Part shown: piece by piece, positions 50,124 to 50,338 of the stretch
How positions within the stretch are numbered: position 1 is the first letter of the stretch
Layout of the letters: each line of letters begins with the position of its first letter
Assembly (NCBI RefSeq): GCF_056712565.1
Contig: NZ_CM160072.1
DNA length: 64,000 nt
Reading direction: 5' to 3' (one strand)
Translations under genes and position numbers: made by a program
Notes under the pieces: model-generated
Told to the model about the DNA's origin: nothing
Seen by the model: the letters and a program-made list of their open reading frames with translations, nothing else
Databases searched by the model: none

Positions 50124-50338
50124 GGCCGGATAAGGTGCTTGCGCCGCATCCGGCAACCAATGCCTGATGCGACGCTGTTGCGTCTTATCAGGCCTACAAC
50201 CGCTGCCGAAAGTAGGCCGGATAAGGTGCTTGCGCCGCATCCGGCAACCAATGCCTGATGCGACGCTGTTGCGTCTTATCAGGCCTACAACTGCTGCCGA
50301 AAGTAGGCCGGATAAGGCGTTTACGCCGCATCCGGCAT
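50124..50338. repeat. tandemly duplicated BIME/REP cluster
   Basis: About 91-bp unit (GGCCGGATAAGGTGCTTGCGCCGCATCCGGCAACCAATGCCTGATGCGACGCTGTTGCGTCTTATCAGGCCTACAAC[C/T]GCTGCCGAAAGTA) present twice, followed by a third partial REP. Confidence 0.85.

Follow-up and report, generated by a model that had tools for sequence, protein, structure and literature searches.

The lamB-malM spacer and its REP array

The locus belongs to the malK-lamB-malM operon, and the presence of REPs in its lamB-malM spacer has been recognised since the 1980s. Within the 64-kb stretch of DNA analysed, hereafter called the window, the maltoporin gene lamB is separated from malM by a spacer of 322 nt that holds five REPs, all of them inside the spacer, together with a short GC hairpin (Table 1). 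The region is 100% identical to E. coli ATCC 11775 (NZ_CP033092.2), in which the flanking genes are annotated as lamB and malM.

Table 1. Features of the lamB-malM interval, in window positions.
Feature	Position	Strand	Details and source
lamB (maltoporin) CDS	48771-50111	+	stop TAA 50109-50111; ORF list and RefSeq annotation of the identical record
Spacer from lamB stop to first REP	50112-50123	+	12 nt, TAGCAAAACCTG
Y REP no. 1	50124-50155	+	loop type Ya, GGTGCTTGCGCC; palindrome, dG -19.0; regex REP scan; within Rfam naRNA4 match 50124-50194
Linker S	50156-50160	+	ACCAA, head-to-head
Z2 REP no. 1	50161-50194	+	inverted relative to Y; palindrome, dG -22.1; REP scan on - strand
Linker l, C variant	50195-50214	+	TACAACCGCTGCCGAAAGTA; C at 50201; tail-to-tail
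Y REP no. 2	50215-50246	+	type Ya, same as Y1
Linker S, copy 2	50247-50251	+	
Z2 REP no. 2	50252-50285	+	same as no. 1
Linker l, T variant	50286-50305	+	T at 50292
Y REP no. 3 (terminal)	50306-50337	+	type Yb, GGCGTTTACGCC; dG -20.9
GC hairpin	50353-50366	+	5-bp stem and GNRA tetraloop, GGGGC-GAAA-GCCCC, GGGGCGAAAGCCCC; RNA dG -10.0 kcal/mol
malM CDS	50434-51354	+	ATG 50434, GAGGTG upstream; RefSeq annotation of NZ_CP033092.2; sequence

A 91-nt unit occurs twice in tandem within the spacer (50124-50214 and 50215-50305, 99%), both in the raw sequence and in the output of a repeat finder. TRF delimited the array to 50124-50337 (period 91, 2.4 copies, score 400) and reported it as the sole tandem repeat across the 64-kb window. 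The first-pass annotation had described a tandem duplication with a single C/T difference, and self-comparison, TRF and the raw sequence all agree on this, the only mismatch being C at 50201 against T at 50292. Because 90 of 91 positions match in tandem, chance is ruled out as the origin of the duplication. The partial third copy (50306-50337) differs from Y1 and Y2 at three clustered positions (50318, 50320 and 50323).

Each unit consists of a 32-nt Y REP, a 5-nt head-to-head linker, a 34-nt inverted Z2 REP and a 20-nt tail-to-tail linker, giving the overall order Y-S-Z2-l / Y-S-Z2-l / Y with orientations alternating as Y(+)/Z2(-)/Y(+)/Z2(-)/Y(+). This anatomy bears out the initial description of the element as a BIME of inverted REP pairs and linkers lying between lamB and malM. 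The REP that had been placed after the duplication is indeed present at 50306-50337, although it is the fifth REP of the array and not the third. The Y palindrome reads GGCCGGATAAGG....CCGCATCCGGCA, and the Z2 palindrome, in the opposite orientation, reads TGCCTGATGCGACGC....GCGTCTTATCAGGCC followed by TAC. On the plus strand the Y REPs are GTAG-first, with GTA preceding Y2 and Y3 and CTG preceding Y1; linker l terminates in GTA, and CTAC follows both Z2 REPs (GGCCTAC). The 20-nt linker is provisionally assigned to the l/r/s motifs named by Bachellier et al. As RNA, each REP folds with a dG of -19 to -22 kcal/mol, and the folding of the whole spacer is far stronger than that of shuffled sequences (z = -8.3). 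Three ORFs that overlap the array, 49885-50133 (+), 49998-50240 (-) and 50012-50251 (-), were set aside as presumed palindrome artefacts.

The GC hairpin, which had been noted as a separate element at about 50350-50370, was located at 50353-50366, outside the repeat. Every allele seen, the 0-unit ones among them, preserves the stem and the GNRA form; most alleles have a GAAA loop, and AST215 and two non-coli Escherichia loci have GCAA instead. In the stretch from the last Y REP to the hairpin (50338-50352), the window and its relatives carry TAAAAACAGCTTTAA and K-12, O157 and others carry TAAAA(A)CAGGTTGTCATTATCTGAA.

The hairpin is followed directly by TCTGATTATC, with no T-run. A search of 49900-50600 for intrinsic terminators, defined as a GC-rich stem plus a T-run, returned 0 terminator-like sites, and the same interval yielded no sigma-70-like promoter. 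With no promoter-like site found for malM, its expression would depend on read-through from upstream. These observations bear on a reading in which the array and the downstream hairpin act together to terminate or attenuate transcription and thereby set the level of malM expression, a larger number of units giving stronger polarity. Such a reading draws on the presence of stable hairpins and on Rho-dependent attenuation, which was reportedly seen in an earlier study, and is opposed by the absence of any stem-plus-T-run site between 49900 and 50600. Moreover, malM is reported (Gilson et al. 1986) to be expressed as the last gene of the operon in K-12, and termination in the spacer can therefore not be complete. 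A terminating or attenuating role is possible, but we are inclined to doubt it.

Unit number among genomes

Comparison of copy number among E. coli genomes, the check put forward by the first-pass annotation, gave 0 to 3 units at this site (Table 2). A query made of the flanks alone, with units read from how far each match extended, was applied to an even spread of 59 genomes, and 0, 1, 2 and 3 units were counted in 15, 40, 2 and 2 of them, respectively. Y REP no. 3, of type Yb, is the sole REP that the 0-unit alleles contain.

Table 2. Length states of the lamB-malM spacer and the arrangements of REPs and linkers found in them.
Units	REPs	Spacer (nt)	Genomes	Arrangement
0	one Y REP	150-151	O157:H7 strain 3384, AST215	
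1	3	231-242	K-12 MG1655, 2022H048, GN05652, AR_0067, YDC107, ATCC 25922, A0 34/86, E5	l(C): 2022H048; l(T): ATCC 25922, E5, A0 34/86
2	5	322	window, S88, UPEC 536, A13, 82.0312	Ya-l(C)-Ya-l(T)-Yb: window, S88; Ya-l(C)-Yb-l(T)-Yb: 536, A13, 82.0312
3	7	413	NC101, M1/5, CREC7837, MY504	Ya-l(C)-Ya-l(C)-Ya*-l(T)-Yb: NC101; Ya'-l(C)-Yb-l(T)-Yb-l(T)-Yb: M1/5, CREC7837, MY504

Larger numbers of genomes were counted with short diagnostic words, and these counts are lower bounds or approximations rather than a full census. The junction word of 37 nt joins the end of linker l to the start of a Ya-type Y, and it finds no 28-mer seed in one-unit B2-type alleles, whose terminal Y is Yb. The window-type junction between units was found exactly in 154 of 5,426 complete E. 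coli genomes, always on the chromosome, and twice, as in NC101, in 34 of these 154. A further 96 imperfect matches were traced to alleles of one unit whose terminal Y is of Ya type (AR_0067, YDC107). In a second expanded family the middle REP is Yb, not Ya, and the junction of this family was exact in 94 genomes; the 73-nt query used for it also matched other BIME-2 loci in approximately 5,000 genomes, and only the class with at least 99% identity (the 94) was used. The corresponding 37-mer of l(T) was exact in 437 genomes, with two copies in 73. These junction-word counts place the number of genomes with at least two units at approximately 250 (about 4.6%), an approximate lower bound. Unit number could not be read from how much of the full 601-nt query was covered, joined pieces giving one-unit genomes 100% coverage too; this query matched at a median of 25 places per genome, in keeping with a repeat of many copies.

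The flanks fall into haplotype groups of their own. For the 300 nt at the 3' end of lamB (49812-50111), identity to other E. coli is sharply bimodal, at least 99% in 1,138 genomes and 90-95% in 4,008 with almost none between, and the lamB 3' end therefore falls into two haplotype groups that are deeply diverged. Two groups of flank haplotypes are marked by an indel of 10-11 nt at 50338-50352. The group whose flanks are at least 99% identical to the window comprises 1,104 genomes, and the arrangements listed in Table 2 all occur within it. Searches with the lamB 3' end alone gave no information on unit number. One record, NZ_CP183153.1 (strain 572), had two places of match, and of the flank query just the malM half aligned as a single place; the lamB end may be split off by an insertion or rearrangement.

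It could be supposed that the second 91-bp unit is spurious and arose in assembly. Short-read assemblies do break at this site, as seen for Escherichia sp. MOD1-EC7003, whose 10.5-kb contig stops inside the array, evidently broken at the repeat. Against this, S88 carries the two-unit allele base for base as in the window, with the C/T difference included; 154 complete genomes, each assembled independently, contain the exact junction; two- and three-unit alleles of another haplotype exist; and the array is only 214 bp long. Since the junction is found in so many independent assemblies, an artefact is effectively refuted and can be given almost no credence.

The two-unit array is thus an inherited allele and not an event specific to one strain, being shared with S88 and having its junction in 154 complete genomes. 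The first-pass annotation had interpreted the duplication as a recent amplification that indicates local recombination activity. Local recombination is a fitting reading and the change in copy number is real and recurrent, but 'recent' holds only in a relative sense for an allele shared by many lineages. Unit number differs even between genomes with 100% identical 400-nt flanks (matches H106 and H107). Because one duplication cannot yield the set of arrangements in Table 2, several in-register gains, losses or conversions are needed, with crossovers at different points in the Y REPs. Outside E. coli, two representatives of non-coli Escherichia carry a single Y only, and MOD1-EC7003 has an array of its own at the same site (contig positions 10239-10500; at least 2.9 units, period 91, 97% matches) with diverged linkers. 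This separate array indicates that expansion at the site has occurred independently more than once. The lamB-malM site is a copy-number hot spot, with no fewer than four length states and two or more families of expanded haplotypes.

Class of the array

REPs, or palindromic units, are imperfect extragenic palindromes of 30-40 nt that end in a GTAG/CTAC foot and number in the hundreds in a genome. The five repeats fit this description and are of the Y and Z2 types; they measure 32-34 nt, and none extends into lamB or malM. Two arrangements of such elements have been distinguished (Ton-Hoang et al., PMC3333891). BIME-1 combines z1 and y REPs in single copy around a long L linker that often contains an IHF site, and BIME-2 combines z2 and y REPs around a short S linker in multiple tandem copies, with a copy number at each locus that varies between strains. 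The array fits every sequence criterion of BIME-2: its y and z2 REPs alternate in orientation, its S linker is short (ACCAA, 5 nt) beside a tail-to-tail linker of 20 nt, and its tandem copies vary between strains, with 2.4 copies here and 0, 1, 2 or 3 units elsewhere.

The first-pass annotation had stated that BIMEs bind IHF and gyrase. IHF binding is known for some BIMEs (PMC3333891), and if the array were one of these it would be of the BIME-1, or RIB-RIP, type. IHF sites sit in the long L linker of the single-copy z1 and y elements, however, whereas the REPs here are Y and the longer Z2 form, joined head to head by 5 nt, and the IHF core WATCAANNNNTTR is absent from 50100-50440 even with one mismatch allowed. 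The K-12 allele of the same site is moreover catalogued as 'BIMEs2', 124 bp, lamB>-malM> (Sutormin et al., PMC6379681 Table DS3). An IHF-binding element of this type is accordingly a very remote prospect, and the IHF half of the statement, which belongs to BIME-1, did not stand; the gyrase half is upheld by the K-12 allele, as described below.

Both Y-S-Z2 pairs also exceed the gathering threshold of the Rfam naRNA4 family (RF02564), scoring 74.8 bits at 50124-50194 and at 50215-50285 on the plus strand, which is the transcribed strand, against a threshold of 59.5; the stretch from Y3 to the hairpin scores 43.4 bits and falls below it. The family was derived from Y/Z2 units of REP325, and two-hairpin RNAs such as Y plus Z2 act with HU, many REPs being transcribed (PMC4550694). 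The units might on these grounds be putative sRNA genes of the naRNA4 type, whose products would be processed from the operon transcript, bind HU, bridge cruciform DNA and condense the nucleoid, so that the duplication would double their dose. The Rfam model, however, fits essentially any Y/Z2 pair. As two other BIMEs in the window (38076-38146 and 45895-45965) also pass, a match marks a Y/Z2 pair and not a specific gene, and a nucleoid phenotype has been demonstrated only for REP325 and naRNA4 (PMC4550694). We therefore consider an sRNA function unlikely.

Several other features were recorded in the window. The pair at 38076-38146 is the top naRNA4 match, with 79.5 bits, and lies approximately 65 nt from a match to the Rfam sRNA STnc430 on the opposite strand (38212-38361, 76 bits). 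The malE-malF REP cluster at 45895-46017 comprises a Y/Z2 pair of the naRNA4 type (45895-45965, 62.7 bits) and a Y REP at 45988-46017, and it adjoins the 3' end of a minus-strand ORF (46029-47219) that is putatively malE by position. The regex scan located a lone Z2-type REP at 25933-25965. Further away are a complete rRNA operon at 6478-11488, with 16S, a tRNA at 8105-8177, a StyR-44 match at 8258-8366, 23S and 5S, and a lysine riboswitch on the minus strand at 35977-36173, both of them unremarkable landmarks.

Proposed roles and related systems

Taken together, the array is very probably a two-unit BIME-2 allele of the lamB-malM spacer in the malK-lamB-malM operon, with units gained and lost in register and with putative roles as for the K-12 REPs. 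The functional statements made for the two-unit allele are all transferred from K-12. In K-12 the cluster is called REP316 (bioRxiv 10.1101/2024.07.17.603846) and is said to stabilise the lamB cistron. This documented role of the K-12 allele favours the suggestion of the first-pass annotation that the array can modulate mRNA stability and polarity. Carried over from the one-unit K-12 allele and from BIME-2 in general, the stable REP hairpins in the operon mRNA would hold up 3'-to-5' decay, and such a block would protect the upstream lamB segment and uncouple lamB from malM expression. According to Liang et al. 2015 (cited through PMC12306157), a REP at most 15 nt from a stop codon can make ribosomes stall at termination and reduce expression of the gene upstream. 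With 12 nt between the lamB stop and the first REP, this REP may likewise dampen termination of lamB translation.

At the level of DNA, the Y REPs would be preferred sites of gyrase binding and cleavage. Gyrase cleavage sites are over-represented in BIME-2, y REPs being cut more than z2 and independently of transcription (PMC6379681). The K-12 lamB-malM BIME-2 contains three ciprofloxacin-trapped gyrase cleavage sites in vivo, and the site was without gyrase cleavage under rifampicin plus ciprofloxacin, microcin B17 or oxolinic acid (PMC6379681 Table DS3). A role of the array as a gyrase site is thus supported by analogy with the K-12 allele. Binding of DNA polymerase I to the lamB-malM spacer is also reported, in an account that cites Gilson et al. 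1990. Each extra unit adds one more Y/Z2 pair, and would provide an additional pair of barriers to exonucleases and an additional Y REP of the kind preferred by gyrase.

Units are likely gained and lost through misaligned recombination or replication slippage between near-identical Y REPs or whole units. Another possible route runs through TnpA-REP, a REP-associated transposase whose cleavage and strand-transfer activity has been put forward as a means of BIME-2 amplification; the enzyme cuts at CT sites in iREPs and linkers and yields BIME-adding recombinants in vitro (PMC3333891). Slippage or unequal recombination and the action of TnpA-REP cannot be told apart from sequence alone.

The number of units, from 0 to 3, might act as a heritable and reversible dial on the level of LamB, on the LamB:MalM ratio or on local supercoiling, making the site a contingency-like locus and not a neutral repeat. 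Selection could favour certain unit numbers in extraintestinal B2 lineages, given that LamB is a major phage receptor and a nutrient pore and that the lamB 3' end exists in two diverged haplotype groups. We nevertheless hold such a dial to be highly improbable.

That E. coli strains differ in the number of BIME copies was already set out by Bachellier et al. 1997 and by Ton-Hoang et al. 2012 (PMC3333891), the latter citing the former. Tandem amplification and strain variation are therefore already known for BIME-2, and the lamB-malM census is new only as a tabulation. What the present check adds is that the duplication is a true inherited allele, that the attribution to IHF is corrected, and a small census; it carries little weight beyond correct annotation. 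With the unit-number states found in the census, the site offers a convenient natural series for relating REP number to mRNA decay, polarity and gyrase loading, and the same series could show whether BIME-2 expansion needs the REP-associated transposase.

Four known systems can be set beside the array. The first is the REPIN/RAYT (TnpA-REP) system, in which Y-S-Z2 corresponds to the type of REP doublet that TnpA-REP cleaves and recombines in vitro, and the published models yield in-register addition of BIME units of this kind (PMC3333891). No RAYT gene was found within the 64-kb window, and some B2 strains, for example CFT073, are without a TnpA-REP gene. The second, REP325 (yjdM-yjdN), encodes naRNA1-6 and likewise has tandem Y and Z2 palindromes with constant linkers, and the units of the window exceed the threshold of its Rfam family. 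REP325 differs in its six units, whose Y/Z2 modules measure 77 nt and are connected by 'U' motifs, in contrast to the two 91-nt units of the window, and the link to HU and the nucleoid was demonstrated there only (PMC4550694). The third, the malE-malF REPs, are a classical REP stabiliser of mRNA and resemble the array as an intercistronic Y/Z2 cluster, belonging to the neighbouring divergent maltose operon and present in the window at 45895-46017; they occupy a different site, at which no tandem array was detected in the window. The closest counterpart is the K-12 lamB-malM BIME-2. It has one unit, three REPs and a spacer of 242 nt, compared with two units, five REPs and 322 nt in the window; its linker and loop sequences differ, and an indel of 10-11 nt lies between the last Y and the hairpin. 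Both alleles nevertheless occupy the same chromosomal site and share the order Y - S - Z2 - l - Y, the distance of 12 nt from the lamB stop and the GNRA hairpin downstream.
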